Positions 3,923-37,726 of a DNA stretch of 64,000 bases are shown piece after piece. Positions within the stretch are counted from its first letter, which is position 1. Every line of letters starts with the position of its first letter. The position numbers and the translations under genes are program-made. Source of the stretch: Alphaproteobacteria bacterium (GTDB lineage Bacteria; Pseudomonadota; Alphaproteobacteria; UBA828); the NCBI GenBank assembly GCA_965237415.1, contig CBDEFM010000002.1:3776001-3840000 (forward strand), in the 5' to 3' direction. The notes beneath the pieces were generated by a model. That model was given only the letters and a program-made list of their open reading frames with translations. It searched no databases and was not told where the DNA came from.

Positions 3923-4065
3923 CGCTCCCGGCCGAATTTCAAGGGCGCTGCTCTCGTATTGCTGGCGTAGAGCGGCGTCCTTCGGCCGCGGGCATTGGCT
4001 GATCTATTCGAGCGAACGCAGTTGTTGTCCACCGCATTTGAAGGGACCCGTATGGGGGATCCCGG

Positions 4066-4836: not shown

Positions 4837-4935
4837 TGGTGCGCGGCCGATCGCCATGATCCGACCGTCGACACAGCACCAGCGCGGGGGGACCGATACC
4901 ATGTGGGTTGATCGTAACCTGTGGGAGGTGGGGCG

Positions 4936-6753
4936 GTGAACGCACCTGGCACCGCGGCTCGGGTGCGTGACCCGTTCGGCTTCGAGCTGTTCAAGAACGC
5001 AGTCTTCGCGATTGCCGACGAGATGGCGCTGACGGTCTGCCGCACGACCTATTCGGCCGTGCTGCGCGACAACATGGACTTCTCGACTGCGTTGACCGAC
5101 GGCGAGGGCAGGCTAATCGCCCAGGGGCTCACTCTGCCCGCCCATCTCGGCTCGATTCCAACGGCGATCCTTTCGGTTCTGCGCCATTTCGGCGACGACA
5201 TGCACCCCGGCGACGTCTTCATTATGAACGATCCGTTCGATGGCGGCATGCACCTGCCGGACATCTTCGTGTTCAAGCCCCTCTTTCACGAGAGCAGCCG
5301 CATCGCCTTCGCCGCCACGGTCTGCCATCACGCCGATGTCGGTGGTCGTGTTCCCGGGTCCAACGCGTCTGACTCGACCGAGATTTATCAGGAGGGGGTC
5401 CGGATCCCGCCACTTCGGATGTATGAAAGAGGAAAGCGGAATGAAACGCTATTCGCGTTACTAGAAAAGAATGTACGCCTTCCCGTTAAACTGTTCGGCG
5501 ACCTGCGCGCTCAGCTCGCCGCCTGCCACATTGCGGAGCGACAGTTTCTGGAGTTGGTCGACCGGCATGGCGCCACAAGTGCACGAGAATATCTCCATGA
5601 GATTATAGATTACGCCGAGCGCCTTACGAGAGCCGCGCTACTCGACCTACCCGACGGCGAGGCGAGCTTCGAGGACTGGATCGACGACGACGGCGTCGAG
5701 CGCGACAAGCCGATCCGGCTCTTCGTGACCCTGCGCAAGACGGGCGACAGTCTTCACGCCGACTGGACGGGCAGCGCCCAACAGGTAAAGGGAGCAATCA
5801 ACAGCACCCTTTCCTGGACGAAGGCAGCAACCTACACCGCTATTCGTTCGGTGCTGCCACCGGGGATTCCGAATAACGAGGGCGTCTTCCGCGCCATCAC
5901 CGTCTCGGCGCCCGCCGGCACCATCACCAACGCGGTGCTGCCCGCGGCCTGCGCGGCGCGCGGCCTGACCGGATTTCGCATGGTTGACTGCGCTTTCGGC
6001 GCGCTCGCGATGATGCTGCCGGACAAGGTGTTCGCTGCCTCCGACGGTGGCGTCACCGGGATCACCTACGGCGGATACGACAATGCCCGCAATCCGTTCA
6101 TCTATGTCGACTTCACCGGCGGCACCTGGGGCGCGCGGCCCTGGGCCGACGGCCTCGAAGGTAACTCCAACATCTTCGCGAACTTAGCCTCGCAATCGGT
6201 CGAGGCCACTGAGGCCGAATACCCCTTGCAGATCCTTTCCTACGAGTTCGTGGCCGACCGCGCCGGCGCCGGAACCTACCGCGGCGGCGCGCCGTTCCGA
6301 CGCGAATACCGCTTCCTCGAGGAGGAGGGCCTGCTTCAGGTGCGCTCGGACCGGCGTACATTCCGGCCCTATGGGCTCTATGGGGGGAAGCCCGGCCAGC
6401 CGTCGCGCAACGTGATGAACCCGGGCCCAGACGAGCGCCCCCTGCCGAGCAAGCTGACCGAGACGATCAAGCGCGGCGAGGTGTTCCGCCACGAGCTCGC
6501 CGGCGCGGGCGGCTGGGGCGATCCGCTGGAGCGCGACCCGGAAGCCGTGCTCCGCGACCTACGCAACGAGCTTATCGGCGGGGATGCCGCGCGGGACGAC
6601 TATGGGGTGGTGATCGATACCGCATGTTGGCGGGTCGATCACGCTGCGACCAAGGAACGTCGGGCCGCACTCAGAGCGGCACGCGGCTGGGCAGAGACTC
6701 CGGTGGTGTTGTTCGACGACCAACCGGACACAACGGCCAAGGCCCGGCCATGA
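4936..6753 (+). CDS. Hydantoinase B/oxoprolinase family protein
   Basis: NDPFDGGMHLPD, HHADVGG, EIYQEG and GAGGWGDP motifs. Confidence 0.9.
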   Translation: MNAPGTAARVRDPFGFELFKNAVFAIADEMALTVCRTTYSAVLRDNMDFSTALTDGEGRLIAQGLTLPAHLGSIPTAILSVLRHFGDDMHPGDVFIMNDPFDGGMHLPDIFVFKPLFHESSRIAFAATVCHHADVGGRVPGSNASDSTEIYQEGVRIPPLRMYERGKRNETLFALLEKNVRLPVKLFGDLRAQLAACHIAERQFLELVDRHGATSAREYLHEIIDYAERLTRAALLDLPDGEASFEDWIDDDGVERDKPIRLFVTLRKTGDSLHADWTGSAQQVKGAINSTLSWTKAATYTAIRSVLPPGIPNNEGVFRAITVSAPAGTITNAVLPAACAARGLTGFRMVDCAFGALAMMLPDKVFAASDGGVTGITYGGYDNARNPFIYVDFTGGTWGARPWADGLEGNSNIFANLASQSVEATEAEYPLQILSYEFVADRAGAGTYRGGAPFRREYRFLEEEGLLQVRSDRRTFRPYGLYGGKPGQPSRNVMNPGPDERPLPSKLTETIKRGEVFRHELAGAGGWGDPLERDPEAVLRDLRNELIGGDAARDDYGVVIDTACWRVDHAATKERRAALRAARGWAETPVVLFDDQPDTTAKARP

Positions 6754-16568: not shown

Positions 16569-17528
16569 ATGGACATCGGAATGACCATTCCCAATTACGG
16601 GCCGCTCGCTCGACGCGACGCCATCATCGCGATCGCGGGCCAGTCCGAGGCCCTTGGTTTCAGCATCATGGCGATTGCCGATCACATCGTCATTCCGAAG
16701 ACTTGGAACTCCTTCTATCCCTATTCGCCGACCGGGCGGGTCGACACTTTCGATGGCGGCGACTGCCTGGAACCGTTGGCGCTGATGGCGGCGCTCGCAC
16801 TCGCGACCGAAAAGGCGCAGCTGCTCACCGCCGTACTGGTGGTGCCCTATCGCCCGCCCATCTTGACGGCCAAGCAGCTCGCGACGATCGACGTCCTCTC
16901 CGAGGGGCGGGTCACCGTCGGCTGCGGGACGGGCTGGATGCGCGAGGAGTTCGAGGCGATCGGTGCCCCGCCCTATGAGGCGCGCGGCCAAGTAACGGAC
17001 GAGTATATCGAGGCCTTCCGGGCGATGTGGACGAGCGACGAGCCGACCTATGAGGGGGAGTACGCCCGCGTCGCGGACATCTATTTCCGTCCCCAGCCGG
17101 TCCGCAAGCCGCACCCGCCGATCTGGATCGGCGGTGACAGCATGCTGGCACTGCGCCGGACGGCGCGCCTCGGCGACGGCTGGCTGCCAGTCGGCCTCGC
17201 GCCGAAACGCCCGCTCAACACGATCGCTAGATATCGGGACGCAGCGGAGACCCTCGCCGACCTCGCGCGCGATGCCGGTCGCGACCCGGCTGAGATCGCG
17301 CTTACCTATTGGGCCATCTGGTATGACGAGACCAAGCGCGTCACCCTCGACGACGGCAGCCGCCACATCTTCACCGGCGAGGCTGCGGAGATCGCTGCCG
17401 ACATCAACGCGCTGGCCGAAATCGGCGTCAGCGCTGTCCTCTTCAGCTTCGTCCGAAGCACCCTCGACGAGACGCTCGCGAGCACCGAGCGCTTCGCGCG
17501 CGAAGTGATGCCGTTGGTTGGCAGTTAA
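16569..17528 (+). CDS. LLM-class (luciferase-like) oxidoreductase, F420-dependent-type subfamily
   Basis: ADHIVIP, TAKQLATIDVLSEGR, GTGWMREEF, PPIWIGG and GDGW motifs. Confidence 0.85.
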   Translation: MDIGMTIPNYGPLARRDAIIAIAGQSEALGFSIMAIADHIVIPKTWNSFYPYSPTGRVDTFDGGDCLEPLALMAALALATEKAQLLTAVLVVPYRPPILTAKQLATIDVLSEGRVTVGCGTGWMREEFEAIGAPPYEARGQVTDEYIEAFRAMWTSDEPTYEGEYARVADIYFRPQPVRKPHPPIWIGGDSMLALRRTARLGDGWLPVGLAPKRPLNTIARYRDAAETLADLARDAGRDPAEIALTYWAIWYDETKRVTLDDGSRHIFTGEAAEIAADINALAEIGVSAVLFSFVRSTLDETLASTERFAREVMPLVGS

Positions 17529-17786
17529 AAGTTGACGACTTTCGTGAGCTGGAGATGCTCATTGTCAGTCGGTGCGCGGGTCTTGCGCCGATCGACATGT
17601 CAACACAATGATTTCGCTGAATTCAGAGGGGTCAAGCGCCGACGCCGAACAACACCGTAGCGGCAAACGGGAGGTAAACGCATTGAACCGCACAGGCAGA
17701 ACAATGAGCCCGCGGGGCAACGGCTCAAAGGGTGTCGGGAACCGGTGGCAGGAAACCGCACAATCACGCGCCGGAGCAGACCAATA

Positions 17787-18040
17787 TGGCTCATTCCGCC
17801 GTCCGCGACGTCCCCAAACTTACGGTCTCAACACGACTACGCAAGCCGACGCCGACGCATGATCCCGGCAAGGAGTACCAGTTTCGGTACCGGGCAAAGA
17901 AGCAGAGCTCGCCACCACGCGTCGTTAAGTTTTCTGGAGGACGCTCCAGCAGCATGCTGTTGTTCGCACTTGTTAACGGCGGAGGAATAATGCTCCACGC
18001 GAGGCGACCGGGCGGTCCGGTCGCGGCGGCGCAAAAGTGA
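17787..18040 (+). pseudogene. Fragment with a PP-loop motif (PAPS-reductase-like/adenine nucleotide alpha hydrolase N-terminus)
   Basis: VVKFSGGRSSSMLL, and the ORF ends soon after. Confidence 0.4.
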
Positions 18041-18316
18041 TGGGGTGGGATTCAGGCTCTGCCACAACCCATTGTATTCAGCCAACTTTTCGACCTGCTG
18101 ACTTGCCAGCCTCACGCTCCGCCCAACCCAATCGGCCGGAACACAGCGAAGTTCGCAGACCGTCGCCGCAGCGAATCGCGATGGCGCCGCGGAATGAGCC
18201 CGCCACGTCTGTGCCCGAGGAGAGATAGACGGGCTGGACGTCATACAGCGCTGCCGTGCCGCACGCGTCTGCGCCCAATATCGAAGTGATCTGCCGGCTT
18301 GAATGGATAGACGACT

Positions 18317-18871
18317 TCAATCCCGCTTGCAGCGGTTTCCGTTGTACGGGCGCCGGCCCAGCCGCTCTTGATAGTCGTGCGATTGCCAATTCGCGCGGAA
18401 CAGCCACTGCTTTTCCGTCTGCCGTTCGGCGAGCGCCGGGTCGATTTCCACTTCGTCGAAGCCGCTTCGCCGGGCCATGGCGTATTGATCTGCGAGGATG
18501 TGGCCTGACGCGCGGAGCCGGCCCCGGTAACCCAGCAGCCGCAACTGGCGAGCAAGCGAGAATCCCCGGCCGTCCATGTGCGACGGGAATACAATGCGAA
18601 TGAGGGCGATCCGCCCGAAGGCGGGCACGATTTCCTCGGCTAGTGCGGCGTTCTCGACATCCAGCGCGGCCCGGTCCGGCAGCGCGGGACAGTCGTTCTC
18701 TCCGCTCCACCGGGTGAATTCGCCGGACCAGCCATCTTCCTGGAACCCGTTGTCGCGGACAAGAATCCTGCGGTTCTGGTATCCGTTGCCCGAATTCGCG
18801 CACTCTTGGGCGGAGGTTGCCTGAGAGGGCAAGTCGCGTTGCGCCTCGGGGTTCGCTTCGCCGCGTGCCAC
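18317..18871 (-). CDS. DUF934 family sulfite-reductase-associated protein (N-terminus uncertain)
   Basis: FPSHMDGRGFSLARQLR..GYRGRLRASGHILADQY...RSGFD; lies downstream of cysI. Confidence 0.85.
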   Translation of the reverse strand: MARGEANPEAQRDLPSQATSAQECANSGNGYQNRRILVRDNGFQEDGWSGEFTRWSGENDCPALPDRAALDVENAALAEEIVPAFGRIALIRIVFPSHMDGRGFSLARQLRLLGYRGRLRASGHILADQYAMARRSGFDEVEIDPALAERQTEKQWLFRANWQSHDYQERLGRRPYNGNRCKRD

Positions 18872-23258: not shown

Positions 23259-24620
<1,362 letters not shown>

Positions 24621-24671
24621 TCCCCGGCCGATCCCGGACCCTATCAAGACCGCGCCCGGGACGCGCGGCGC

Positions 24672-25880
24672 CTACTGGGAGCGCACCAGGACGAGCGGTC
24701 CGTTCGGCATGTCGGGATTGAGCGATATTCGGTGCGCCGGATCGCGAAGCACATGCGCTCTCGCGAACCATCCCATGCGGAAGGTCCTCGGGTTGGGGTG
24801 CGGCGCGGTACACATTGCCTCTGCGCCGGATTCCAGATGGCTCTCGATCAAGCGTTCATACGCGGTGCGGAATTTTTCTGCGATGAAGGGCGCGATCGTG
24901 TGCGAGCCGCTCAGTCCTTCGAAATATCGGCCGGATTCGAAGACCGTCGCGATCGCCTCGGAGAACTCCTTCATTTGGGACGCGGCAACATCGACCATGA
25001 GCCCGCCATGTCCCGGACGCGCTGCGTGGCAGAATGCTGTGTCGGCAATATCGCGTACCGCGCGCTCAAGCTCATCGCCCGCGTCGACATGCCAGTGGGT
25101 GACGTTCCGCAGATGACGATGCACGGGAATTCCGTTGCGTCCGGGTGAGAGCGCGACCATGGCGGCTGTTTCCCGGCTCCCCTGAAAATCTAGCCGCTTC
25201 AAATCGGGTTGGCGCGCCAACGCCATTCCGGCGTCGGAGCCGCTGCCCTGAATCAGATTGAATACACCGCCCGGAGCGCCGGCGCGGTTCAGCGCATCGG
25301 CAAGAAACACAGGCGAGAGCGGCGCCTGGATCGAGGGATGAACGACCGCCGTGTTGCCCGCCGCCAAATCCAAGGCCAGGGTCCGGATGCAGAGCGTGAG
25401 CGGGCTGCTCCAGGACAGGATATGCCCGATTACACCTGGCGCGGTGTCGTCCGACGTCCCGGAAACACCCGTCAATTGCGCCCGGGTCTCGCGGATCGCC
25501 GACAGGGTGTCGTCCCTCGCTGCCTGCTGGGGCAGTCCGGTGTCACGGCAGATGACCGCCGCGACCTGCTCGATCCGGCTGGCAACGTCTTCCAGCGCAC
25601 CGTCGACAATCTCTGCGCGTCGGGGGTCCGAAAGCGGTGCCCAGCGGTCGATGGCGGTGCGGGCCGCTGACATCGCCGCGGCAATATCGCGGTGGGTGGA
25701 GAGCGGGACGGCGGCAATGACGGAGCTGTCGGAAGGATCGTAGATGTCGAACGAATAGCCTTCGCGCGTAAACCTCCAATTGCCGCCGATAAAGTTGCGT
25801 TCGGACTGTTCGTACCAGGGAAGTCCGGCGCCGGCGCTTTCGGTCGAAGCGAACGTGAACGCGCAGCCCGCCGGGGCCAC
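24672..25880 (-). CDS. Aldehyde dehydrogenase-like protein with degenerate catalytic motifs (aldH2 position)
   Basis: [20 protein letters not shown] and FQGS are present; PWN reads SWS, and no ELGGK or GQxC motif is seen. Confidence 0.65.
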
Positions 25881-26081
25881 CGCTGTGCCCCGGCCGTCCC
25901 CTTACGATATCACTGATCATCCCCGACGAGGCTGGCGGGAGCACTCTTCCCGTTCAACATGTCGTCGCCGACGAGACCCTGCCGGCGGCGCAGCGCTCAC
26001 GGTGGGGGTCGTAGGAACGGCGAAGGGAGAGGGTATGCGGCGGGCCGGCAACCGCGCGGGGCGCGGCTGCCGGGAGCGCCC

Positions 26082-27104
26082 TCAGGCATCGCCGCTCAGG
26101 CCCGCCTGCCACTTCAGTTCGGCCCAGCGCGCCAAGACGTCGTCGGCAATATTCTGGGCCGAAAGACCGTCGACGTTCGCTGCGATCATGTCCGATCCGG
26201 ATGTGATGATCGCCTCCGCATGGCCGTTCCATTTGGCGGCAAAATCGCGCAGGACATCCCGGTTCGCGGCATCCTCGGCGACGATGAGATTCATGGCCGC
26301 GACGGTCCAACGGTCATGTCGCTCGCAATCTTGATAGAGGTTCTCCAGCAGCAGGCCATCGAGCTCGTCGCCGGCCAGGCGCGCTGCGCGCGATAGCTGG
26401 TTGACGAAAAGATTGTCGCAGACCGGCCGGATAATCAGATTGAACGCGACCAGCGCTTCGTCCCACTCATAGACGAGGAGCAGCTTCTCCATGGCCTCGC
26501 GGACGGGCTGCCACGATGGCGCCTCTTCCCAGGTCGCTCGTTCGCCGCTGCCGAAGCCGTGCGACGGATGCTCCGTGCCGAGCTGCCGCGTCCGATAGGC
26601 GATGCGCTGGACGCGGCGAAGCTGATCGGCAACCTGAAACGACGCGCAATCAGCGACATAGGAAGACGCGGCAATCTGTTGGATGTAGGCCGACAGCATC
26701 TGCTGCACGTGCGTCAAATAGCGACAAGGCGTCATTGCCGTGAGCAGGAGCTGCAGGCACTCGTTCGTGAGGCGCCCGTCGCTCGTGTCTTCCTGGGTAA
26801 ATGAGGCAAGAAGCTTGTCGATATAGGCTTCCTGCGTGTCCTGCATCTTGACGTAGCTGTGGTAGGTGACCCGGTCCGGATCGCGGAAGGCATCCCAGTT
26901 CCCGACCTTGATCAAGATATCGTCCCGATATTTTTTGAGCCACACGTTGCCGTGGACGTCCGGCCCCATTTCCAGGGGCGTTTCGCCGGTCGTGTGGTTC
27001 AAGTTGTGGGTGACGATCTCGCAATCGCTGGGCTTGCCGGTCACATCGCCCAACGTGCTCCAGGTCTTCTTCCGCGGGCGCCGGCGTGCTGTTGTTTCGG
27101 CCAT
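26082..27104 (-). CDS. isoE: Alkene/isoprene monooxygenase hydroxylase beta subunit
   Basis: KKTWS...KPS, WDAFRDPD, DQLRRVQRIAYRT, WDEAL; operon position. Confidence 0.88.
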   Translation of the reverse strand: MAETTARRRPRKKTWSTLGDVTGKPSDCEIVTHNLNHTTGETPLEMGPDVHGNVWLKKYRDDILIKVGNWDAFRDPDRVTYHSYVKMQDTQEAYIDKLLASFTQEDTSDGRLTNECLQLLLTAMTPCRYLTHVQQMLSAYIQQIAASSYVADCASFQVADQLRRVQRIAYRTRQLGTEHPSHGFGSGERATWEEAPSWQPVREAMEKLLLVYEWDEALVAFNLIIRPVCDNLFVNQLSRAARLAGDELDGLLLENLYQDCERHDRWTVAAMNLIVAEDAANRDVLRDFAAKWNGHAEAIITSGSDMIAANVDGLSAQNIADDVLARWAELKWQAGLSGDA

Positions 27105-27139
27105 GATTTCCCCCAGTGTCTCTCTCGCTGCTGGAACCG

Positions 27140-27445
27140 TCAGTTGACGTAGTACCAGCGCATCTGCTCCGTGCTCGATTGCATCCGGCCCTTGAAGGAC
27201 GGCATCTCAACCTCAAGCATCGCGAGGTCGAAGGCACGGCCCAGGTGCTTTTCGATCGACGCCTTGGTCAGGACGCAATCGCGCTCTGTATGGATGCGGA
27301 CGTAGTCCTCGCGTTCGAAGACCATCACTTCGCGATCCGGATTGTCGTCGATCACGGCGTCGATCACCGCGTCGGCGAGATCGCCCGTCCGAATGATCGG
27401 GCCGACCAGATTTTCGTCCATATTCGCGAATTCGTCGGAGCTCAT
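27140..27445 (-). CDS. isoD: Monooxygenase coupling/effector protein (MmoB/DmpM family)
   Basis: VGPIIR...DNPD...YVRI...MPSFKGR. Confidence 0.9.
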   Translation of the reverse strand: MSSDEFANMDENLVGPIIRTGDLADAVIDAVIDDNPDREVMVFEREDYVRIHTERDCVLTKASIEKHLGRAFDLAMLEVEMPSFKGRMQSSTEQMRWYYVN

Positions 27446-27469
27446 CGTCCTCGTTCCTTTCTCGCGCTA

Positions 27470-27832
27470 TCAGGCGTCGGGCTCGGAGCCTATGAAGACG
27501 CGACCGCCTTCCACCTTCACGGGAAACGTCTTCAGGCATTCGGTTGCCGGGTTCACCCCTTGGCCGCCGTCGGCACGAAATTCCCAGAGATGGGCGCGGC
27601 AGATGATGACACCGTCTTCGGTCAACTCTCCGTCTGCCAGCGGCGTGCTCTGATGCGGGCAAATGGCGTCGTAGGCGAAATACCGCCCGCCGTATCGAAC
27701 GAGCAGCACTTCGTGCTCCCCGACATCGAATGCGTCCATGTCGCCATCCCAGAGCTCGTCCTCGGCACAGAGATCGACGTATTCGATGTCGTCGGCCGCC
27801 GCCGCCGTTGCGGTCGCCGCTACTCCTTCCAT
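27470..27832 (-). CDS. isoC: Rieske ferredoxin of the monooxygenase
   Basis: CPHQ...CRAHLWEF Rieske ligands. Confidence 0.9.
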   Translation of the reverse strand: MEGVAATATAAAADDIEYVDLCAEDELWDGDMDAFDVGEHEVLLVRYGGRYFAYDAICPHQSTPLADGELTEDGVIICRAHLWEFRADGGQGVNPATECLKTFPVKVEGGRVFIGSEPDA

Positions 27833-28086
27833 CGCACGTCGAACCATTGAAGCGGCAGGATGTCCGTCGTCGCCATAAGCTCTTCGAGGCGCTGATCGCC
27901 CGGCAGGACCTCGCCGTTGAACAGGACCTCGTAGCCCTCGGCTTCCGGGTTTCCTGGCAGGCGCCGGCCCACGCTGTGCACTGCCACCTTTTCCGCGATC
28001 TGGTCGAAGGTGTCCTCGGTATCGACCGCCGCGAGGTGCGGAATGTGGTCGCCGACAAAGCGGCCGGTGATCGGGAAGAGAGCCAT
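27820..28086 (-). CDS. isoB: Hydroxylase gamma subunit (TmoB/XamoB-like)
   Basis: MALFPITGRFVGD...VDTEDT..QIAEKVAVHSVGRR...PLQWFDVR; RBS GGAGG. Confidence 0.9.
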   Translation of the reverse strand: MALFPITGRFVGDHIPHLAAVDTEDTFDQIAEKVAVHSVGRRLPGNPEAEGYEVLFNGEVLPGDQRLEELMATTDILPLQWFDVRWKE

Positions 28087-28133
28087 GTCATTACCTCCGC
28101 GCTGGAATTGCGGGTGGACTGGTGCCCTGCCGG

Positions 28134-29627
28134 CTATTCGGCAGCGGCCGGCATGTCCTTGTAGTCCTCGGCCCAGGCGTAGCCGTACACATCGTCGCCC
28201 ATGACGTCGGGCGTGATGCTCATCCACTCCAGCCCGCCCGCGAGGTTCATCGGCTGGATCATGCCGGCGATGAAGCGGTCGACGACGTTCATGTGGCCGG
28301 CGTAACGCTCCGGCTCGAGCTCGAAGATCCACTTCGAAATCTCGCTGTCGAATTGATAGACGCGGCCCTTGTAGATGACCTGGTGGCAGCCGAGATGATG
28401 GCGGTCTATACCGGAGCCGAGAGGCAGCTGCGTGATGTTGCAGAGCGACGGCAGGGTCTCGGGAAAGGTCTTCTCCATATTGCCGTCATTGACGTTCCTG
28501 ATGATCTCGTCCCAAAGATAGCCCCAGCTGTCTTCCCAGGTCGAATACTTCTCGTTGAGCCACTTGCGTTCGGCCTTCGAGACGCCGGCATTGGGCTTCC
28601 AGAAGAGCGTCGGCCGCCAGAACCAGGTGCCGATGTGCATGGAATGGTGCCCGTGATCCAGGGCTACCTGGAACTGCGGCCAGTACCAGGGCTTCTCCAG
28701 CCCATAGTCGCGCAGGATCCGCTCATGGTGTTTGACGATCCATTCGAGCATGAATTCCTTGAACGACATCTTCCGCTTGGCGAGCGGCGTGTAGTAGTCC
28801 ATCGACGTACCGGTCAGCGTCTGGAACAGGCGGAAGGTGCGCCAGAACGAAACGTCCAGGACTTGCTGGGCGCGCTTCGGATCGTGCTTGATGACGACGT
28901 CCAGCGTCGGGAATCCGATCTGGGCATGGCGTGCTTCATCCGTCTGAATGCTTGAGAGCATGTTCGAGAAGTTGACATCGCCCGCCTCCATGGCGTCCGA
29001 CGCCATGGCGATGAACTGGATGTTGGTGAAGCCGTGCTCGACCGTCAGTGAGGTCGCGAGCGACGCCTCCACGCAATCCGCGTTCAGCATCACGTCGTCG
29101 AAGAAATTGCGCACAGCCAGGACGCCCCACTCGTTGGTGTGAAACGCCTTCTGGCACCAGTCGAAGCGCGGATCCTCGTTCAGCAGATCGTGGCTGAAGC
29201 GCATATCCAACTGGGCGTGCCGAATTTCGTCGAGCATTCCGAACGCACAGAGACTGCGCCAGCGGGGGCTCGGCGCGAAGCGGCTGAAGCGGCTCTGCAT
29301 GGTCACCGCCATCTGCTCGACCATGCACGTCGTCCCCATGTGCAGATGGGAGGAGGCCTGGTGCCCTGCGTCGAGCTTGTCGTAGAGCTTGGCCCGCAGC
29401 ATGGCTTCGCGTATGGCGCTGACGCCGGCTTCCTTCTCGCGCTGCACCATCACATATTCGCGGTAGGAAACGCGGTACGGCTCGTCCCAGTCTTCCCAGG
29501 CGTCCAGCGGGATGCCTTTCGCACCGACCCATTCCTCGGGGAAGGCGTCCTCGCGGTCGACGTAACTCAACGTCCAGTCGAGGTCGCGAGAGATGTCGTA
29601 CCAGTCATCGCGATTCAGTAACGCCAT
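28134..29627 (-). CDS. isoA: Group-1 SDIMO hydroxylase alpha subunit (IsoA/XamoA-like)
   Basis: Diiron motifs DEIRH and DEARH; 497 aa; closely resembles remembered Xanthobacter Py2 XamoA (MALLNRDDWYDI...). Confidence 0.92.
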   Translation of the reverse strand: MALLNRDDWYDISRDLDWTLSYVDREDAFPEEWVGAKGIPLDAWEDWDEPYRVSYREYVMVQREKEAGVSAIREAMLRAKLYDKLDAGHQASSHLHMGTTCMVEQMAVTMQSRFSRFAPSPRWRSLCAFGMLDEIRHAQLDMRFSHDLLNEDPRFDWCQKAFHTNEWGVLAVRNFFDDVMLNADCVEASLATSLTVEHGFTNIQFIAMASDAMEAGDVNFSNMLSSIQTDEARHAQIGFPTLDVVIKHDPKRAQQVLDVSFWRTFRLFQTLTGTSMDYYTPLAKRKMSFKEFMLEWIVKHHERILRDYGLEKPWYWPQFQVALDHGHHSMHIGTWFWRPTLFWKPNAGVSKAERKWLNEKYSTWEDSWGYLWDEIIRNVNDGNMEKTFPETLPSLCNITQLPLGSGIDRHHLGCHQVIYKGRVYQFDSEISKWIFELEPERYAGHMNVVDRFIAGMIQPMNLAGGLEWMSITPDVMGDDVYGYAWAEDYKDMPAAAE

Positions 29628-29724
29628 CGTTGATTTCCTCCCATACGTGTCGGCCGGTCCGGTCGCTGCATTCCCCGATACGATGCGTGGACCCGATCGC
29701 TCCGGTCCGCGCAGGGCACAGCAG

Positions 29725-30438
29725 TTACACGTCGAAACGCGCCTTCATCCGGTCCAGGTAGCCCGTCAGGTTCGGCTTGCCCGCCGCATAGTCCTTGGTG
29801 TCGAAGTCGAACGGCGTGTCGATGATGTGGCGCAGGCTCGAGGCAACCGCCGCGTCGATCGAGCGGGGCTCGGCGCCCATCAGGAATCCGTCGCCGCCGA
29901 TCCGCGTATCGATCGCGTCGATGTCTTCGCGGGCTCGCCCGTAGATCACGTCGCCCGACATGCGGCCAAAACCGCTGTGCATTAACTGCGTGACGATGCG
30001 GTGGCGGAAATCGTCGGCGAAGGCGCGGAGCGGAGGCGGAATTTCATCGGTGCCGGCGATGAGCCGCAGATAGATTTCAAAGTTCGGAGTCTCGCACCAG
30101 CGCGGCTGGATGACGGTGGTCCAGTAGAGATGCTCGTCGATCAGACGGTTCCAGGCGTGCATGTCCGCCTTCTCGGCAGCGGAGGCGCCTCCGTCCAGCG
30201 AATCGCCGTACTTGCCCTTCTAGTAGTTGATGATGGCCGTGGAATCCGCGACCGACTCATCGCCATCCTCGATCATCGGCAGCTTGCCGTGCGGCGTATC
30301 CTGGTCGAGCCTCGTCAGGTCCTGGTTGACGAACTCGTGCTCGATCCCCGCCATCTTCATGTAGTAGATGACCTTGGTGACATACGGGCTGATGCACGGC
30401 ACCGTCCAGCCTGGCAGATACCCATAGACCTTGATCAT
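29725..30438 (-). pseudogene. isoI: Isoprene-epoxide glutathione S-transferase with an in-frame TAG at 30220-30222
   Basis: MIKVYGY.P.W..P.ISPYVTKV, QDL..LDQD.PHGKLP and EHLYW match remembered Rhodococcus IsoI; both halves are in one frame, 237 codons. Confidence 0.88.
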
Positions 30439-30502
30439 GGTTGTTCCTCCGCTCTGCGCTTTCGCTCGTCAGGCATTCCAGGCGATGCCATAGTTATAGC
30501 CG

Positions 30503-31183
30503 TCACCACGCCAATTCTTCGCCGTTGGCATGCCAAAACCGGCCCGATGTCTCGAGGCTGAGGGCATCCATCCGCCGGATCAGCCCCTCCGCCGCCTCAT
30601 CCGGCGTGATGTATTCGAAGTCTCCCGGAATATCCTTGGTGAGGTCGGTCGCCACCATACCGGGATGCAGCGCCGCCACGGCGATGCCGCGCGCCGACAA
30701 GTCATGGTGGAGATTGAGGGTCACCATGTTGGCGCCCGCCTTCGAGGCGCGATAGGCGTACATCTGCCCGGAGCCGTTATCGGAAAGCGAGCCGACGCGG
30801 CTGGTAATCACGCCCACCTTGGCGTTCGCTGCCAGATAGGGGAGCGACGCCTCGATGGCCCGCAGGGGGCCGATGGTGTTGATCTCGATCTGCCGGCGCA
30901 GGTCGTCATAGTCGATCTTGCCCAGCTCATCGAGGCCGAGCACGCCGGCGACGTGGACGAGACAATCGATCTTGTCGTCGCGGCTGGCCAGCGCCTCCGC
31001 CATGTTCACCACCGCGGCTGCGGAGGTCACGTCGACGTTGGGGATCACGTCGATGCCGGCGCCGTTATAAGCCTCTCCCGGACCCAGGCAGACCGACACC
31101 ACCGTCTCCCCCCGCGCGGCCAATTGCCGGCAAATGGAAAGGCCGATCCCGCGATCAGCACCGATGATCAGATAAGTTGCCAT
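30503..31183 (-). CDS. isoH: SDR dehydrogenase, IsoH-like
   Basis: GADRGIG, HVAGV..LDE, RRQIEINT.GPLR, YRASK, HPGMVATDLTKD; 226 aa like remembered IsoH. Confidence 0.88.
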   Translation of the reverse strand: MATYLIIGADRGIGLSICRQLAARGETVVSVCLGPGEAYNGAGIDVIPNVDVTSAAAVVNMAEALASRDDKIDCLVHVAGVLGLDELGKIDYDDLRRQIEINTIGPLRAIEASLPYLAANAKVGVITSRVGSLSDNGSGQMYAYRASKAGANMVTLNLHHDLSARGIAVAALHPGMVATDLTKDIPGDFEYITPDEAAEGLIRRMDALSLETSGRFWHANGEELAW

Positions 31184-31233
31184 TCAGCCGCTCACCCCTG
31201 CTTCGGCCGATACCGGATCTCGCTTTACCCTAG

Positions 31234-31342
31234 GAGCCTGCGCCGCAGAACGCTTTTGGGCACCTTCAGACACCATAGGTAGTGGTGACGAATGATCTGA
31301 TACTACTACATATAGTAGTCAATTTTCCTACGGCGCAGGCTC
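31234..31342. mobile_element. 109-bp MITE (family B) with IS1182-like ends
   Basis: TIR GAGCCTGCGCCG at both ends; flanked by CTAG at 31230-31233 and 31343-31346. Confidence 0.88.
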
Positions 31343-31346
31343 CTAG

Positions 31347-32992
31347 GAGCGTGCGCCGTAGAAGTTTTGATGCTGGGCGATTGGCGCGGGGCCGCCGGAG
31401 AGGTGGGATTTTGGCCCGAGTGTGGACATCTGGCCCGCCCGGTCTGGGATGGAAATCCCTGACCGGAAGGCCGGAACGGAAGAGATTCGCGTTTCATACG
31501 CGGTCGATGGGCACTGCGCGCCCCGGAGCAAGTGCGTTGGCAGGCCAGCACCTGCCTCAGCACGTTGCCACCGTCCCCATCCGCTCGATGTTCAACGCCA
31601 AGCACACGAGGTCCCACTCGCCGCGCACCTTCGCCAAGCCTCGCAGGCTGAATCGTCGGAACCCGAGCACCTTCTCGATCCACCCGTTCGGCGCCTCCGA
31701 GAGCCACTTGCGTTGCGCGTACCGGGCTTTGCCCGCGGGGCTCGCCAGTTTCTCACCCATGCGGTGCGTGGCAGGGAGCCGGGCCGGGTCGACCGCCACC
31801 TGGGACTTGCCTTCACGCCCCAGCGCTACGTGCGCGTCGATGCCGCGGTCTTCCAGCTCCAACAGATCCGGCTCGTTGCAGTAGCCCGCATCGGCCAGTA
31901 CCACCGCAGGCTCGACCCCAAACGTCTCGTTGATCTCGTCGAGCATCCCCACCAGCTGACCCTGGTCGCTGGCCTGTGGCCCCACCTGAGCCGCGACGAT
32001 GATCCGGTGCTCCCCATCGACCGCCATCTGCGCGTTGTAGCACTGCTGGAATCCCTCGCTGCTGGTCTTCATGATCTGGCTCTCGGGATCGGTGAAATTG
32101 CTCTGCGCCTTCGGCTCGGGCTCGCCGTAGGCCCGCTTGTAGGGCCGCCCGCCCCGGGGATTGCGGTCCTGCCCAGGCTCGCGCCCGCGCTCATCGTCGC
32201 GCCCGCGTTGCGCCGCCTCCAAACGCGCTTTGGCTGCCTGGATCGCCGCCAGGCGCTTCTCCCTGCGTTGCAACTCCTCGGGCAACTCGTCGCCCCGGAA
32301 ATCCTCGCCCCAACGCTCGTCTTCTTCGGCGTCCACCATCCCCGCCCTCGTCAGCAGCGCCTCGATCTCCGCCTGCAAGCGAGCCGCCTCTTTGCCCATC
32401 CGCTCATAGCTCATCGCCTTGCGCTTGCTCGCGTTCGCTCGCACCTTCGTCCCGTCGACCGAGAGCTTGCCGAACCGCGCCAGTCCCATCTCGCGCGCCA
32501 CCTGCACCACCCCCACAAACAGCTCGCTGAACGCCGCCAGATGTCGGCGTCGGAACTCACATACCGTGCGATGTTGCGGGAAGTTGCCCGCCGCGAGCAT
32601 CCGAAACGCTACATCCTCCTCCAGCTTCCTCGCCACCGCGCGCGAGGAGAATGTGCCCGTCGCGTAGGCATAGATCAGCACCTTGACCATCATCGACGGC
32701 TCGTAGGGGGCGTTGCGTCGACCGTCCCCCTCGTAGGGCGCATAGAACGCCGTCAAGTCCAGTGCATCGACCACATCGCTGACGTGATGAGCCAGGTGCC
32801 CTGGGGGAACCCACTCCTGCAAGTCCGGCGGCAAAAGCAAGGGTTGGGCCGGCTGGTAAGCACGAAACGTGGTCGGCATCGGGAGTTCCTACACGCAACT
32901 GGCGTATCGGATCATACTTCCCCCTGCGCAAATCCACCCACAACCCGTCCGCCATCAACTTTGCCGCGCGGACCTTTCCGCGGCGCACGCTC
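31347..32992 (-). mobile_element. IS1182-family element (transposase 31557..32879)
   Basis: TIR GAGCGTGCGCCG, CTAG duplication; YAYATGTFSSR, VDGTKVRANASK and ADAGY motifs. Confidence 0.93.
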
Positions 32993-33035
32993 CTAGGCAG
33001 CGCCGGATATCACCGCATAGCAACTTCCCAATTTG

Positions 33036-33058
33036 ATTGTTCCGCTGAGCCGAACAAT
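33036..33058. promoter_or_regulatory. Putative LysR operator 1
   Basis: ATTGTTC-N9-GAACAAT dyad overlapping the LysR ATG. Confidence 0.65.
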
Positions 33059-33965
33059 GGACCTGAAACATCTCTGTCGGATCAACGTGTTTCAGAAGAT
33101 CGTCGAGACCGGCAACTTCACGCGTGCGGCCCAGGCGCTCAATCTCAGCAAGTCCGTGGTCAGCCAGCACGTCAGCGACCTCGAACGCGAACTGAACGTG
33201 CGCCTGCTGAACCGTTCGACCCGCTCGGTCGCGATCACCCACGAGGGCCATACACTCGCCGAAGCGGCCGAACGGATGATCGACATTGTCGGGACCGCGG
33301 TGGAACGGCTGGAAAGGCAGCAGGACCTGCCGTCGGGCATCATCCGGATGACGGCGTCCCAGAACCTCGCCGTGGTCTATCTCGCCGGCGCGGTCAAACG
33401 CTTCCGCGAGCGGCACCCCAAGGTCGATATCGAGCTCGATGTCCAGGACAGCATCACCAACATCATCGAGGGCGGCTACGATATCGCCTTCTGCATCGGC
33501 TGGCTGAAATCGACCGAGCTCCACGCCGTCAAGATCTGCGATTTCGAAATGATTCCCTGCGCGTCGCCGGCCTATGTCAAGAAGTTCGGGCCGATCGGCT
33601 CGCCGCTGGATCTGACCCACAAGCCGTGGATCACGCTCACCGTCATGCCGGACTTCGACCGGTTGACGCTGACCAACGCCGATCACGACGATGCCAGTGT
33701 CAAGGTCGATCCCTCGATCCGGACGAACTCGGGCATGACGGCCAAGCAGTTCGTTCTGGACGAGGCGGGCGCCGCGCTCCTGCCGGACTACGCGATCCGC
33801 GGCGAAATCGAAAGCGGGCGGATCGTTCGCTTGCTGCCCGGCTGGCGGCACCGGCCCGGTGCCATCGCTGCAACCTACGTGCACCGGCGCCATATGCCGC
33901 CGAGGCTGCGTGCCTTCCTCGATTTCCTCAAGGAAGACGCGAAATCCACCTTCAATCCGCGTTAA
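33057..33965 (+). CDS. LysR regulator (CrgA/DmlR-like)
   Basis: GNFTRAAQAL.LSKS.VS HTH, LLNRSTR, IIEGGYDIA. Confidence 0.93.
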   Translation: MDLKHLCRINVFQKIVETGNFTRAAQALNLSKSVVSQHVSDLERELNVRLLNRSTRSVAITHEGHTLAEAAERMIDIVGTAVERLERQQDLPSGIIRMTASQNLAVVYLAGAVKRFRERHPKVDIELDVQDSITNIIEGGYDIAFCIGWLKSTELHAVKICDFEMIPCASPAYVKKFGPIGSPLDLTHKPWITLTVMPDFDRLTLTNADHDDASVKVDPSIRTNSGMTAKQFVLDEAGAALLPDYAIRGEIESGRIVRLLPGWRHRPGAIAATYVHRRHMPPRLRAFLDFLKEDAKSTFNPR

Positions 33966-33992
33966 GCAGAGTTCGCCGGGCGTCGCCTCGCC

Positions 33993-35222
33993 CTATTCGG
34001 CCGCAGCCGAGTAGGCCCTCAATGCCGGGTCGGTTTCGCCGCCGATCGTGCCGTTCTTGTTCAGCTCGACGATTTCCGCTTCGCTCAGGCCAATTTCGGA
34101 CAGGATTTCCGAGCAATGTTCGCCGAGTTGCGGAGCGCCGGCTCGATGGGTCGCCGGCGAGCCCTCGAACCGGGCGGCATTGCGCGTCTGGCGGAGCCTC
34201 CCGGCGGCCGGATGGTCGGTTTCGACCAGGACTTGGTTTGCGACGACCTGCGGATGGTCGATCACGCCGTTCCGGTTGAGCGCCGGCGCACAGGGCACGC
34301 CGCAGGCTTCGAGGATCGCCATCCATTCGTCAGTGGTGCGCTCCAGCAGCACCTGCTGGGTCAATTCGAGCCGCTCGTCCACATGCGCGTCGCGCGCCGC
34401 AGGCGTCGTGAAACGGTCGTCCTCGAACCATTCCTCCCGTTCCAACGCCTTGCAGAGGCCCTGCCATTCCCTGTCGGACATGATGGCGACCGTCATGTAG
34501 CCGTCCTTCATCCGGTAGATCAGGTCGATGAAGCTGGCCGCCGCCTGATCGGAGACGTCTGCGTCGGGATAGGTCTGAGCGCCGAAGTCCGAGGCCCAGA
34601 GGAACTGCAGGATCGCGTCCAGCATGGACAGGCGGACATGCTGGCCCTGGCCCGTGCGTTCGCGCCGAAACAGGGCAGCGCCGATGGCCTGCGAGGCGGC
34701 CATGGCGGAAAACTTGTCGGGCAGGACGGTGCGCACCAGGCGCGGGCGTTCGTCGTCGGAGCCGGCCTGGATCGTGGTCAGGCCGGAAAGCGCCTGGATC
34801 ACGGGGTCGTAGACGGGCTTGTGGACCCACGGCCCCTTTTCGCCGAAGCCGGACAGCGACATGTAGACGATCCGCGGATTGACCTTCGCGACATCCTCGT
34901 AGCCGACGCCCAGTCTGTCGACCACGCCGGGGCGGAAATTCTGGACGAAGACATCGGCCGTCTCCGCGATCCTGAGCAGGAGATCGCGGCCTTGCGCCTT
35001 CTTGAGGTCCAGCGTGATCGAGCGCTTGCTCCGGTTGATGTTCAGGAACATCGACGACATTCCGCCGCGGCGGTTGCCGAGCGAGCGCACGTGATCGCCC
35101 TTGCCCGGCACCTCGACCTTGATGACGTCAGCGCCCTGGTCGCCCAGGATCGAGGTCGCCCAGGGGCCGGAAAGCATGCTGGTCAGGTCGACGACTTTTA
35201 CGCCTTCGAACGGTCCGCTCAT
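33993..35222 (-). CDS. isoG: Family III CoA-transferase (CaiB/BaiF), IsoG-like by context
   Basis: GADVIKVE, NRSKRSITLDLK, QNFRPG and YDPVIQA motifs; next to the iso genes. Confidence 0.75.
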   Translation of the reverse strand: MSGPFEGVKVVDLTSMLSGPWATSILGDQGADVIKVEVPGKGDHVRSLGNRRGGMSSMFLNINRSKRSITLDLKKAQGRDLLLRIAETADVFVQNFRPGVVDRLGVGYEDVAKVNPRIVYMSLSGFGEKGPWVHKPVYDPVIQALSGLTTIQAGSDDERPRLVRTVLPDKFSAMAASQAIGAALFRRERTGQGQHVRLSMLDAILQFLWASDFGAQTYPDADVSDQAAASFIDLIYRMKDGYMTVAIMSDREWQGLCKALEREEWFEDDRFTTPAARDAHVDERLELTQQVLLERTTDEWMAILEACGVPCAPALNRNGVIDHPQVVANQVLVETDHPAAGRLRQTRNAARFEGSPATHRAGAPQLGEHCSEILSEIGLSEAEIVELNKNGTIGGETDPALRAYSAAAE

Positions 35223-35301
35223 CGGAATCCTCCCGCCAGGTTCATGCGGAAACGACGATAGATTCTCGTTCTGCACCCGCATACTGCCGTTTCCCGAACC
35301 G

Positions 35302-35324
35302 ATTGTCTGGATATTTCGAACAAT
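35302..35324. promoter_or_regulatory. Putative LysR operator 2
   Basis: ATTGTCTGGATATTTCGAACAAT: same 23-bp length and same right half as operator 1. Confidence 0.6.
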
Positions 35325-35433
35325 AGCGGCGGGCGATCCGGCGGGGGCGGCGACGCCGTGTGCTTACAATTGCCACACCTTGGGGCTACGTTCGCCGGAT
35401 GGCGCGGACGCCGCTACCGGAGGATACCGGCCC

Positions 35434-36147
35434 ATGATCGACGCCTATTACTGGCCGACGCCGAATGGATGGAAGATCTCCATCGCCCTGGAGGAAATGG
35501 ATCTCGACTACCGGATCGTCCCCGTCAACATCTATCGGGGCGAACAGTACGAACCCGGCTTCCTCGCCATCAGCCCGAACAATCGGATGCCTGCGATCGT
35601 CGATCATGATCCGTCGGACGGCGGCGGGGCGCTCGCGGTGTTCGAATCCGGCGCCATCCTGATCTACCTGACCGAAAAGACCGGCCGCTTCCTGCCGACG
35701 GATTTGCGCGGGCGCAAGACCGTGCTCGAATGGCTCTCTTGACAGCTGGGGGGCCTCGGCCCGATGATCGGCCAGGCCGGCCATTTCAAGCTCTATGCGC
35801 CGGAGCCCATTCCCTACGCCATCGAGCGCTATCGCAGCGAAATGCTGCGCCTGTACGGCGTGCTCGACCGAAGGCTCGAGGGCCGCGACTATATCGCCGA
35901 CGAGTATTCCATCGCCGACATGGCCTGCTGGCCCTGGGTCATCACCTACAAGGGGCAGAAGGTCGACCTCGACGCGTTCCCCAACGTGAAGCGCTGGTAC
36001 AAGGCGCTGCAGCAGCGGCCGGCGCTGCGGCGCGGCTATGACGCCGGCAAGGAACTCGGCAAGCTGAAGATGGAGTGGGACGAGGAAACCAAGCGGAACC
36101 TTCTGCCCGGCTACCGGCCGGAGGGGGCGCCGGGAAGCGCCGCCTGA
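35434..36147 (+). pseudogene. isoJ: YfcG/IsoJ-like glutathione S-transferase with an in-frame TGA at 35740-35742
   Basis: TPNGWK, SPNNRMPAI, FESGAIL, then EWLS*QLGG where Trp is expected, and YSIADMA. Confidence 0.72.
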
Positions 36148-36212
36148 ATCCCGTTATCCGAGCCGCCGCGATTGCCGGTCATATCGCCGGAGTGTTCGCC
36201 ACGGAGGTCGCG

Positions 36213-36673: not shown

Positions 36674-37726
36674 GAGCATATTCCGCTCACACACGGTCAT
36701 ATTCTGTAGCAACGAAGTGGTTTTCGCACTCGGCCGGGGTGAAGATGTCTGTGGCGTGGCCGATGGCCTCCCAGAGTTCTGTGACGGTGCGGGCGGCGCG
36801 GCGTTTGAGGTCGGCCTTGAACTTGGAGAAGGCCGTCTCCATCGGGTTGAAGTCGGGGCTGTAGGGCGGCAGGAAGCGCAGCTCGGCCCCGACCCGGTGA
36901 ATGTCCTCGCGGACGGCGGCGCTGCGGTGGGCGGCGAGATTATCCATCGCCACGATGTCGCCGGGCTCAAGCGTCGGCACCAGCACCTTCTCGACATAGG
37001 CGAGGAAGGCGGCGCCGTGCATGGCGCCGTCGAGCACCATGGGGGCGGTCATTCCGCTCAGTCTCAGTGCGCCGACGAAGGTCGTGGTCTTCCAGTAGCC
37101 GTGGGGGACCGGCGCCCGGCACCGATGTCCGCGCAGAGCCCGGCCGCAGCGCGTCGTGCCATCTTGGTGGAGGCGCCGGTCTCATCGACGAAGACGAGCC
37201 TGTCAGGGTCGAGAGCGGGCTGGGCTTCGAACCAGGCTCGCCGGCGCCGCAGCACATCAGGTCGCTGCTGCTCGCTGGCGTGCGTCGTTTTTTTGAAGGT
37301 GATCCCCCGGCGGTGGAAGAAGCGCCACACGGTGCTTTGGGAGACCCGCAGCCCGTGCCCGCTCTCCAGATGGGCCGCGATCTCCGCCAGGGTCATGTCC
37401 GGGGTCTCTTCGACCAGCGCCAGAACCACCTCGGCTCGTGCCTCGATCCGCTGCGAGCGCCTGTCTCCGCCTTGCGCTCTGGGCCGATAGCTGCCCGTCA
37501 GACGCCAGGCCCGAACCCACTTGATCGCCGTTGAGAGGGCGATCCCGAAGCGCTTGGCCGCTCCCCGCCGTGACATCCCACCATCCACCGCCGTCACCAC
37601 CCGGCGGCGCAGATCATCCGAAAGAGGTCGTGTCATGCAGGCTGGCCTCCTTCACCAGCCTGCATCTTGAATCACATCTCCAAGCGATTGAAAATTCTAA
37701 AGATTCTCTCAGCTCGAAAAATGCTC
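36674..37726 (-). mobile_element. IS630-family element, frameshifted transposase
   Basis: GAGCAT...ATGCTC ends with TA flanks; 2-bp insertion near 37150 relative to the intact copy. Confidence 0.92.

Follow-up and report, generated by a model that had tools for sequence, protein, structure and literature searches.

Isoprene is emitted on a scale comparable to that of methane, and its proven degraders amount to about a dozen isolates. The locus analyzed here raises the question of whether a further bacterial lineage carries genes for the same or related alkene chemistry and whether these genes can still work. The stretch under study, called the window throughout, comprises 64,000 nucleotides of an alphaproteobacterial genome (GenBank assembly GCA_965237415.1, contig CBDEFM010000002.1, positions 3,776,001 to 3,840,000 of the forward strand). 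Between positions 24672 and 36147 of the window, an initial annotation made from the sequence alone had described an isoprene or alkene monooxygenase cluster. It was read as an XamoA-like oxygenase wired to glutathione genes, split into two LysR-controlled divergons in what looked like a decaying genome. We consider it likely that this is an iso-type cluster for the oxidation of isoprene or a similar alkene with glutathione-based epoxide handling, that it belongs to an undescribed alphaproteobacterial lineage and that the copy in the window is probably disabled.

An IsoA/XamoA-type oxygenase

All genes of the initial annotation were recovered in the order given and with strong family matches (Pfam E-values from 1e-19 to 1e-112). 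The minus strand carries a short aldH-like gene, isoE, isoD, isoC, isoB, isoA, isoI and isoH in succession and, further on, isoG, while genes for a LysR-type regulator (33033-33965) and a YfcG-type glutathione S-transferase (GST; 35434-36147) occupy the plus strand. When one genome of each prokaryotic species was scanned, 62 related loci were obtained. Loci are cited by L numbers where needed; L003 and L004 belong to the genus of the window (their coordinates match genomes G025 and G024).

The alpha subunit of a di-iron hydroxylase is encoded by an intact isoA gene (28134-29627, minus strand, 497 aa; PF02332 at 1.7e-66 and a YHS domain). The other oxygenase components follow on the same strand: isoB for the gamma subunit (27820-28086, 88 aa; an open reading frame (ORF) 68.2% identical to XamoB over 88 aa), isoC for a Rieske ferredoxin (27470-27847, 125 aa; PF00355 at 1.6e-19, CPH...CRAH ligand motif in the sequence, 70.5% to XamoC), isoD for an MmoB/DmpM-type coupling protein (27140-27445, 101 aa; PF02406 at 1.2e-25, 70.7% to XamoD) and isoE for the beta subunit (26082-27104, 340 aa; PF02332 at 6.8e-59, 52.5% to XamoE and 87% to L003/L004). 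In a tblastn comparison with plasmid records, IsoA came closest to XamoA of Xanthobacter Py2 (76.2% identity) and the 'isoA' of Mycobacterium sp. ELW1 (72.3%), with the remaining 71 of 73 matching records below 60%; identity to IsoA of proven degraders was 73-76%. The best solved structures for IsoA were ToMO 1t0q (575 bits) and T4MO 3dhg (541 bits). Residues E104, E134, H137, E197, E231, H234 and T201 align with TouA of 1t0q, and all six di-iron ligands are among the aligned positions, given a ligand numbering that we take to be that of the ToMO/T4MO literature.

Phylogeny separated this subunit from the toluene-type monooxygenases and placed it with IsoA and XamoA. In a tree of 61 rows, from which nine partial rows were excluded, 50 IsoA/XamoA rows split from 11 toluene-type rows at a support of 100, so that a branch with full support stands between the IsoA of the window and any toluene-type grouping. 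The same split received 100/100 in a more careful 32-row tree, where the window fell into a nine-row alphaproteobacterial clade that includes XamoA (100/99). This clade has the shape (L008, L009) outside (XamoA, (L005, (L006, L007), (window, (L003, L004)))), with XamoA and the six remaining rows joined at 97/94. The XamoA-like nature of the oxygenase was thereby supported. Strict nesting of XamoA among the glutathione-linked rows was considered and set aside: the tree gives 97/94, yet the approximately unbiased (AU) test keeps the alternative in which the eight glutathione-linked rows are held together without XamoA (difference in log likelihood 9.2, p = 0.0805). XamoA is a member of the same subclade, and its strict nesting is not proven.

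The accompanying glutathione genes tell a different story. In a quick-method tree of IsoI, the six sequences of the group of the window are sister to the betaproteobacterial IsoI of Variovorax WS11 and Ramlibacter WS9 at 100, and the IsoI of L008 and L009 lies on the other main branch. Since this tree is incongruent with that of IsoA, the oxygenase and thiol modules have different histories. Moreover, 12 of the 50 IsoA-clade rows lack isoGHI in the flank examined.

Further soluble di-iron monooxygenase (SDIMO) loci occur elsewhere in the genome at C2:3737298-3740402 (about 36 kb before the window), C2:1312872-1315371 and C2:1665074-1666018, a set that includes one lone beta subunit. The two other alpha subunits of the genome (48% and 44% identical to XamoA) fall on the toluene-type side of the tree.

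The glutathione module and its putative regulator

The isoH gene (30503-31183, minus strand) encodes an intact short-chain dehydrogenase of 226 aa that is 90% and 89% identical to L003 and L004, 65% to Variovorax and 60% to Rhodococcus. It scored 350.4 bits over positions 1-226 of 226 on NF049951 (cut-off 350; 349.7 bits in a six-frame search of the genome), the equivalog model of IsoH, 1-hydroxy-2-glutathionyl-2-methyl-3-butene dehydrogenase. The adjoining isoI gene (29725-30438, minus strand, 237 codons) was delimited by tblastn against L003/L004, whose IsoI proteins it matches at 92% and 89% in one frame with a single in-frame TAG at codon 73. NF049950, the equivalog model of the isoprene-epoxide GST IsoI (cut-off 300), was matched over its full length at 332.6 bits with the stop written as X, whereas the 145-aa ORF alone gave 178.4 bits. 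Both proteins are thus related to those of iso clusters and reach the curated NCBI cut-offs, IsoI only when read through its stop.

The isoG gene (33993-35282, minus strand) codes for a family III CoA-transferase (PF02515 at 1.4e-112) whose identity is 88% to L003/L004 and, among canonical IsoG proteins, 64% to Variovorax WS11 and 63% to Rhodococcus WS4. Its ORF has 429 aa, and the real start probably lies 10-20 codons inside. No curated IsoG model matched the CoA-transferase of the window or canonical IsoG proteins; the sub-threshold NCBIfam pattern is the same for both.

The proposal that the oxygenase is wired to glutathione rather than coenzyme M was borne out at the level of the genome. 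Glutathione synthesis genes are present (gshB 401 bits, plant-type gshA 648 bits), ComA (PF02679) had no match in a genome that is 96% complete, and queries with XecA and XecC of Py2 found only matches of 24-32% elsewhere in the genome (best 31.5% for XecA and 24-26% for XecC). Because gshA and gshB are present, ComA is absent and close XecA or XecC genes are lacking, the glutathione route is the supported one.

The gene of the LysR-type regulator (310 aa, PF00126 and PF03466; 94% to L003/L004) points away from isoH and meets isoG tail-to-tail, and its place is the same in L003-L007. The idea of two LysR-controlled divergons has to be corrected accordingly: two divergent spacers exist (LysR/isoH and isoG/GST) and there is a single LysR gene, whose control of the isoG/GST pair would be hypothetical. 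The isoG/GST spacer contains, upstream of isoG, a dyad of the type GATTGT-N13-ACAATC (35301-35325, minus strand). It occurs once in the window with one mismatch allowed, has matches in 0 of 100 shuffles and recurs at the equivalent place in L003, L004 and L005, which are 3 of the 85 loci searched.

The possibility that IsoH-like genes point to an iso cluster common to the whole genus was rejected, as the loci examined carry a different SDIMO. Of 20 other genomes in the genus, 17 contain such a short-chain dehydrogenase (255-276 bits on NF049951, 49-51% identical). At all six loci examined (L076-L081, in genomes G020, G023, G009, G016, G021 and G013), it stands beside an SDIMO with an alpha subunit of 40-41% identity. 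The genome of the window lacks this pair.

The YfcG-type GST and the aldH-like gene

The GST that occupies the position of IsoJ (35434-36147, plus strand) is of the YfcG (Nu-class) type, as the initial annotation had it. It reached 255.3 bits on PRK13972 (cut-off 332); on this E. coli YfcG model, canonical IsoJ proteins reach 186-209 bits. Among solved structures, E. coli YfcG 3gx0 matches it best (251.8 bits). Identity to IsoJ of Variovorax WS11, Rhodococcus WS4 and L040 is 43-48%, and the gene is divergent from isoG, whereas IsoJ is recognized as co-oriented after isoI. An intact duplicate lies at C2:1457684-1458763 (93.3% over 1081 bp), with TGG where the assembly has a TGA stop at 35740-35742. 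In the six genomes of this layout, the GST is linked to the cluster in two: L004 has it linked as in the window and L003 has a single unlinked copy. A specific identity with IsoJ did not hold up, and the gene encodes a YfcG-type GST that may serve as IsoJ. Several other GST genes are present in the genome. Each of the three congeneric genomes also has a more distant YfcG-like GST match (41-43%) with a single in-frame TGA (G000 C2:1372895-1373287, G001 C4:811688-812077 and G002 C222:5279-5674), which could be two genes in one frame, a common pseudogene or a recoded codon.

The aldH-like gene at the other end of the cluster (24672-25880, minus strand, 402 aa) matches PF00171 at 9.8e-51 over profile positions 7-375 of 461. 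It is 50.1% identical over 377 aa to Xaut_4863 of Py2 (387 aa; L001 16596-17759), which comes after xamoF, and groups with the gene after isoF in actinobacterial clusters (L024, L029 and others). In the alignment, this family lacks the Glu of the ELGG motif and the conserved Cys, which we take to be the general base and the catalytic residue of aldehyde dehydrogenases. Its proteobacterial members, that of the window included, end about 90 residues before ordinary aldehyde dehydrogenases. The product probably does not function as an aldehyde dehydrogenase; it could be a conserved partner without catalytic activity.

A layout conserved in relatives

The window and L003-L007, together six species genomes, share one arrangement: isoG comes first, then LysR in reverse orientation, isoH-isoI-isoABCDE and the short aldH-like gene, and isoF is missing. 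Owing to this conservation, the layout is no accident of the genome in the window. In L003-L009, every gene gave one stop-free match, except for one stop in the LysR gene of L007. Ratios of non-synonymous to synonymous substitution rates (dN/dS) between the window, L003 and L004 were 0.06-0.34 for all 11 genes, with 0.14-0.18 and no relaxation for isoI.

Only 3 of 49 genomes of the order of the window carry this IsoA (the other nine matches are SDIMOs of 44-49%), which places L005-L009 outside that order. The flanking genes differ in every genome of the group, and horizontal spread of the cluster fits this picture. In L004, a gamma-glutamyltranspeptidase gene (16876-18594) lies 2 kb downstream of the iso-type cluster and could bear on the processing of glutathione conjugates.

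An unlinked reductase

No isoF was found between isoE and the aldH-like gene in the window. A remnant at this place was searched over 500 bases and rejected, as only non-colinear matches with E of at least 0.035 were obtained. The only IsoF-type gene of the genome, with Fer2, FAD_binding_6 and NAD_binding_1 domains, is located at C2:2229926-2230882, about 1.57 Mb from the cluster. It is repeated in the terminal 13.5 kb of C1 (C1:699888-713356), which is 99.98% identical to C2:2224311-2237779. This identity represents either a large repeat or an assembly overlap.

Outside the genus, the unlinked protein comes closest to the in-cluster IsoF of L008/L009 (51-52%). Variovorax IsoF and XamoF follow at 47% and Rhodococcus IsoF at 41%. 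This ranking parallels that of IsoE, so the gene was read as the cognate, relocated reductase. Orthologues of 84-87%, likewise unlinked, exist in two congeneric genomes. The use of a foreign reductase has a precedent: T4moF reduced IsoC in vitro, and reductases are described as exchangeable among four-component enzymes (PMC9004368).

In all three congeners, the reductase gene is paired with the same alpha/beta hydrolase gene (90-92%; L067 8921-10838, corresponding to C2:2229921-2231838, L070 and L071). No IsoF-like reductase gene was found close to the other SDIMO loci of the genome, and a single unlinked reductase may serve several oxygenases.

Damage in this copy

The initial annotation had missed two lesions in the cluster. 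The first is the TAG in isoI at 30220-30222 (codon 73 of 237), where four relatives have a Leu codon, CTG or CTC. Two base changes are needed to derive TAG from either codon, which is not typical of a sequencing error. The stop sits in the N-terminal, glutathione-binding half of the protein. It affects the sole IsoI-type gene, as the genome yielded one match with one TAG and no second at E<=1e-5. Contigs of four public sequencing runs (X1, X3, X8 and X13) were compared with the window over 29700-36200. The segment 29700-30409 is covered by one X1 contig (depth 26) and one X3 contig (depth 2.9). Both carry the TAG and differ from the window solely at 30096, where Cys115 of the window becomes Arg as in the relatives.

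The TGA of the YfcG-type GST fared differently. All four runs read G at 35742, which restores TGG (Trp), and the contigs of X1, X3 and X13 were recognized as the window-type copy and not the paralogue by the diagnostic bases 35739 and 35745. This stop is unconfirmed; an assembly error or variation between strains may account for it. Recoding of TAG and TGA was considered and rejected, as the two codons differ, the relatives have Leu and Trp at these sites and the TGA was not reproduced.

The second lesion is an insert of 1.76 kb at approximately 31234-32992, between LysR and isoH. It combines a repeat of about 118 bp (31229-31347, no strand assigned; seven other genome copies 92-97% identical by blastn) with an IS1182-family element of 1658 bp (31343-33000, minus strand; transposase 31557-32879, NF033551 at 3.4e-108). 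A second copy of the element lies at C2:3855827-3857483 (99.6% over 1658 bp). Comparison with the uninterrupted 88-bp spacer of L003/L004 puts the insertion point about 45 bases ahead of the isoH start, at a CCTAGG that is now duplicated. An X1 contig enters the insert by 22 bases from the isoH side. No contig across the empty insertion site was found in the runs compared, an absence of contigs that proves nothing. With codon 73 of the sole isoI gene turned into a stop and the operon cut off by the insert from its native upstream region, the pathway in this genome is probably disabled or being lost.

The depth of the IS1182-family element in X1 was 1300-5400, against 14-26 for the unique flanks, and the element is also abundant in X3, X8 and X13. 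This high depth, though the genome holds two copies, indicates that the element is very common in the surrounding community. The RNA-library run X8 contains short contigs on isoI and isoG at depths of 3-6, and such contigs do not show transcription.

Proposed pathway and alternative explanations

By homology, the IsoABE di-iron hydroxylase, together with the Rieske protein IsoC and the effector IsoD, would epoxidize an alkene with electrons supplied by the NADH reductase of the IsoF type encoded outside the cluster on C2. IsoI would then join glutathione to the epoxide and IsoH would oxidize the conjugate, while the IsoG CoA-transferase and the YfcG-type GST may act later, in steps that are settled in no organism. 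The divergent LysR protein probably controls the operon from isoH to the aldH-like gene. The data establish the gene content, the family assignments, the phylogeny, the shared layout, the stop codon and the insertion; substrate, electron route, regulation and loss of function are inferred from them. For work on this biology, the intact relatives L003-L007 are a better choice than the copy of the window.

Several observations weigh against this reading. The assignment of a substrate is drawn only from equivalog models and neighboring genes, and the IsoH score is marginal: L003 (347.8 bits) and L005 (346.8 bits) fall just below the cut-off of 350, whereas Variovorax reaches 366. The isoF gene, a defining part of isoABCDEF, is absent from the cluster. 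The genomes of L005, L006 and L007, two of whose records are titled as chromosomes, gave no IsoF-like match at E<=1e-5, which leaves the electron route unexplained for half of the clade. Regarding the damage, the unreproduced TGA and the mismatch at 30096 to X1 and X3 make single-base calls of the assembly uncertain and in need of confirmation by raw reads. X1 or X3 may be the source sample, so the TAG does not have two fully independent confirmations. Contigs also drop rare variants, and an intact isoI allele may exist in the population. Finally, the insertion sequence could supply an outward promoter.

The alternative that survives best keeps the machinery and changes the substrate. The natural olefin could be propene, ethene, butadiene, a haloalkene or a terpene-like compound, with the glutathione genes handling the corresponding epoxide. 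That the nearest characterized oxygenase is the enzyme of propene-grown Py2, at 76.2% and in the same clade, speaks for such a substrate, as do the low-end scores of IsoH and IsoI on their equivalog models. In addition, this oxygenase type is evidently paired with several downstream routes, as seen from the 12 of 50 rows without isoGHI and from the ELW1 'isoA' (72%), which stands without isoGHI and with an alpha/beta hydrolase and dehydrogenases. Nevertheless, IsoI and IsoH do reach the curated isoprene cut-offs, and in the quick IsoI tree the clade stands as sister to Variovorax WS11 and Ramlibacter WS9, both proven isoprene degraders. We regard a substrate other than isoprene as possible but not probable.

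In a second alternative, the pathway would still work here, with the TAG a minority allele or tolerated through read-through, another GST or an intact allele, and with the insert driving the operon by an outward promoter. The other nine genes are intact, isoI has evolved under a dN/dS of 0.14-0.18, several other GST genes are available and the GST TGA was reproduced in none of the four runs, whose contigs conceal rare variants. However, the TAG lies two base changes away from CTG or CTC in the glutathione-binding half, appears in the contigs of two runs and strikes a gene for which no second IsoI-type copy was found at E<=1e-5; we consider a working pathway unlikely. That the reductase-less clusters are relics that oxidize nothing in any of the six genomes is highly improbable: isoF is missing from 6 of 6 clusters and no IsoF-like gene was found in three genomes, but five genomes have the genes intact, the three compared show dN/dS far below 1, the IsoF-type reductase and its adjoining hydrolase are retained in three congeners and reductases are reported to be exchangeable among these enzymes (PMC9004368).

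Beyond the preferred reading of a probably disabled iso-type cluster, a broader scenario can be sketched. Uncultured, possibly sponge-associated marine Alphaproteobacteria would oxidize isoprene or other small alkenes with a glutathione-linked enzyme that has no reductase of its own and takes electrons from an unlinked or generic one, the coenzyme M-linked enzyme of Py2 would have arisen within their lineage by a swap of the thiol module and these organisms would be the basis of the isoprene removal measured in sponges (PMC12756903). We hold this scenario to be rather doubtful.

Surrounding genes and habitat

Directly beside the cluster lies a degraded metH gene (23259-24680, plus strand), recognized by its Pfam domains, three-frame translation and megablast to rhizobial metH, that ends at the aldH-like gene. 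It lacks the pterin-binding domain, with the Hcy domain fused straight to the B12 cap and B12 domains, and has the activation domain in a different frame. No second metH was found in the genome; two matches of a B12 domain reached 34-39% only. A MetE-like gene is present at 57966-59108. Insertion sequences in the window include an IS21 pair and three copies of the IS630 type, of which two are truncated or split; places of insertion sequences and partial genes are 1969-2610, 36687-37636, 43459-44406 and 60649-63109. The genes for a luciferase-like monooxygenase and an M19 peptidase match only part of their Pfam profiles, which adds local support for decay. The earlier view of a decaying genome holds locally, for the degraded metH, the split IS630 copies and the several insertion sequences of the window. 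Three consecutive genes for proteins with RTX repeats (HemolysinCabind) follow an NnrS gene at 49992-54325. A search for near-identical plasmid DNA returned only fragments of metH and GST at 74-80%.

Among the 23 runs listed, three were labelled 'sponge metagenome', all with small shares. One of them, X13, covers mostly the IS1182-family element in the region compared, with a 519-base piece of the window-type GST that has 11 differences and a 151-base piece of isoG at depth 2. The run evidence is too little to name a habitat.

Place in the literature

According to a comparison from 2026, isoA-F and isoG-J occur together in all 11 clusters of proven degraders, with Sphingopyxis OPL5 as the only alphaproteobacterium (PMC12917321). 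A 2025 review gives 70% identity between XamoA and IsoA and reads it as horizontal transfer (PMC11825192). The claim of a new lineage stood, in that none such was described in the literature searched. The cluster adds an uncultured alphaproteobacterial lineage with a different layout and shows that such a cluster can have its reductase gene elsewhere in the genome or, apparently, not at all. It also places the textbook coenzyme M-linked enzyme of Xanthobacter among glutathione-linked relatives, which turns the exchange of thiol modules in alkene catabolism into a testable question. Isoprene removal by sponges has been measured, and the available part of that report names no gene for it (PMC12756903). 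In the literature searched, no genetic study links isoprene monooxygenase or isoprene degradation to sponges, and supplementary tables outside this scope may list more iso clusters. If the hosts of the present cluster are sponge-associated, it offers candidate genes for this uptake.

Comparison with known systems

The layout differs from that of all characterized degraders. Variovorax WS11, Ramlibacter WS9, Gordonia OPL2 and Rhodococcus WS4 have isoG-H-I-J, usually a full-length aldH and then isoABCDEF, to which the Gram-negative members add a divergent LysR gene upstream. ToMO (1t0q) and T4MO (3dhg) share the six-gene enzyme family and the fold of the window enzyme. The toluene-type relatives found are 44-50% identical to IsoA of the window and form a separate clade at 100, and two such plasmid loci (L065 and L066) have no glutathione genes in their 3-kb flanks. 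The 'isoA' of Mycobacterium sp. ELW1 (72%), which likewise lacks isoGHI, has an alpha/beta hydrolase gene and dehydrogenase genes nearby.

In Rhodococcus AD45, the pathway chemistry of IsoI and IsoH has been established (PMC9004368), and gshA, gshB and marR are described beside actinobacterial iso clusters (PMC12917321). The AD45-type cluster of Rhodococcus sp. WS4 (L029) is 73% identical for IsoA, 63% for IsoG, 60% for IsoH and 47% for IsoI. Like the window, it has a gene of the same divergent aldH-like family after the monooxygenase genes; unlike the window, it keeps isoF in the operon, has all genes co-oriented and shows no LysR gene in the flank examined.

Variovorax WS11 (pVarWS11_iso) and Ramlibacter WS9 carry the same families, with 76% identity for IsoA, 64% for IsoG, 65% for IsoH and 58-61% for IsoI. 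In them, as in the window, LysR is divergent from the glutathione genes, and the IsoI of the window clade is sister to theirs. Their order is LysR on the minus strand, isoG-H-I-J, full-length aldH and isoABCDEF, whereas in the window isoG stands apart from the other glutathione genes, upstream of LysR, the GST is inverted (in the clade, inverted or absent), no full-length aldH stands between a GST gene and isoA, isoF is missing and a short aldH-like gene comes after isoE. Their IsoA belongs to a different subclade.

XamoABCDEF of Py2 is the closest characterized oxygenase (A 76%, B 68%, C 70%, D 71% and E 52%). It falls into the same nine-row clade as sister to the six reductase-less rows (97/94), and the same short aldH-like gene (Xaut_4863) comes after it. 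In contrast to the window, Py2 has xamoF, adjoining xecA/C/D/E and coenzyme M biosynthesis genes and no isoGHI. The sister group within the IsoA subclade is formed by L008 and L009 (81% and 79%) from uncultured Alphaproteobacteria. These loci share LysR, isoG, isoH, isoI, isoABCDE and the short aldH-like gene with the window, and differ from it in that isoF is kept in the operon, LysR on the minus strand is followed by isoG-H-I in the canonical way and IsoI is 48% identical.

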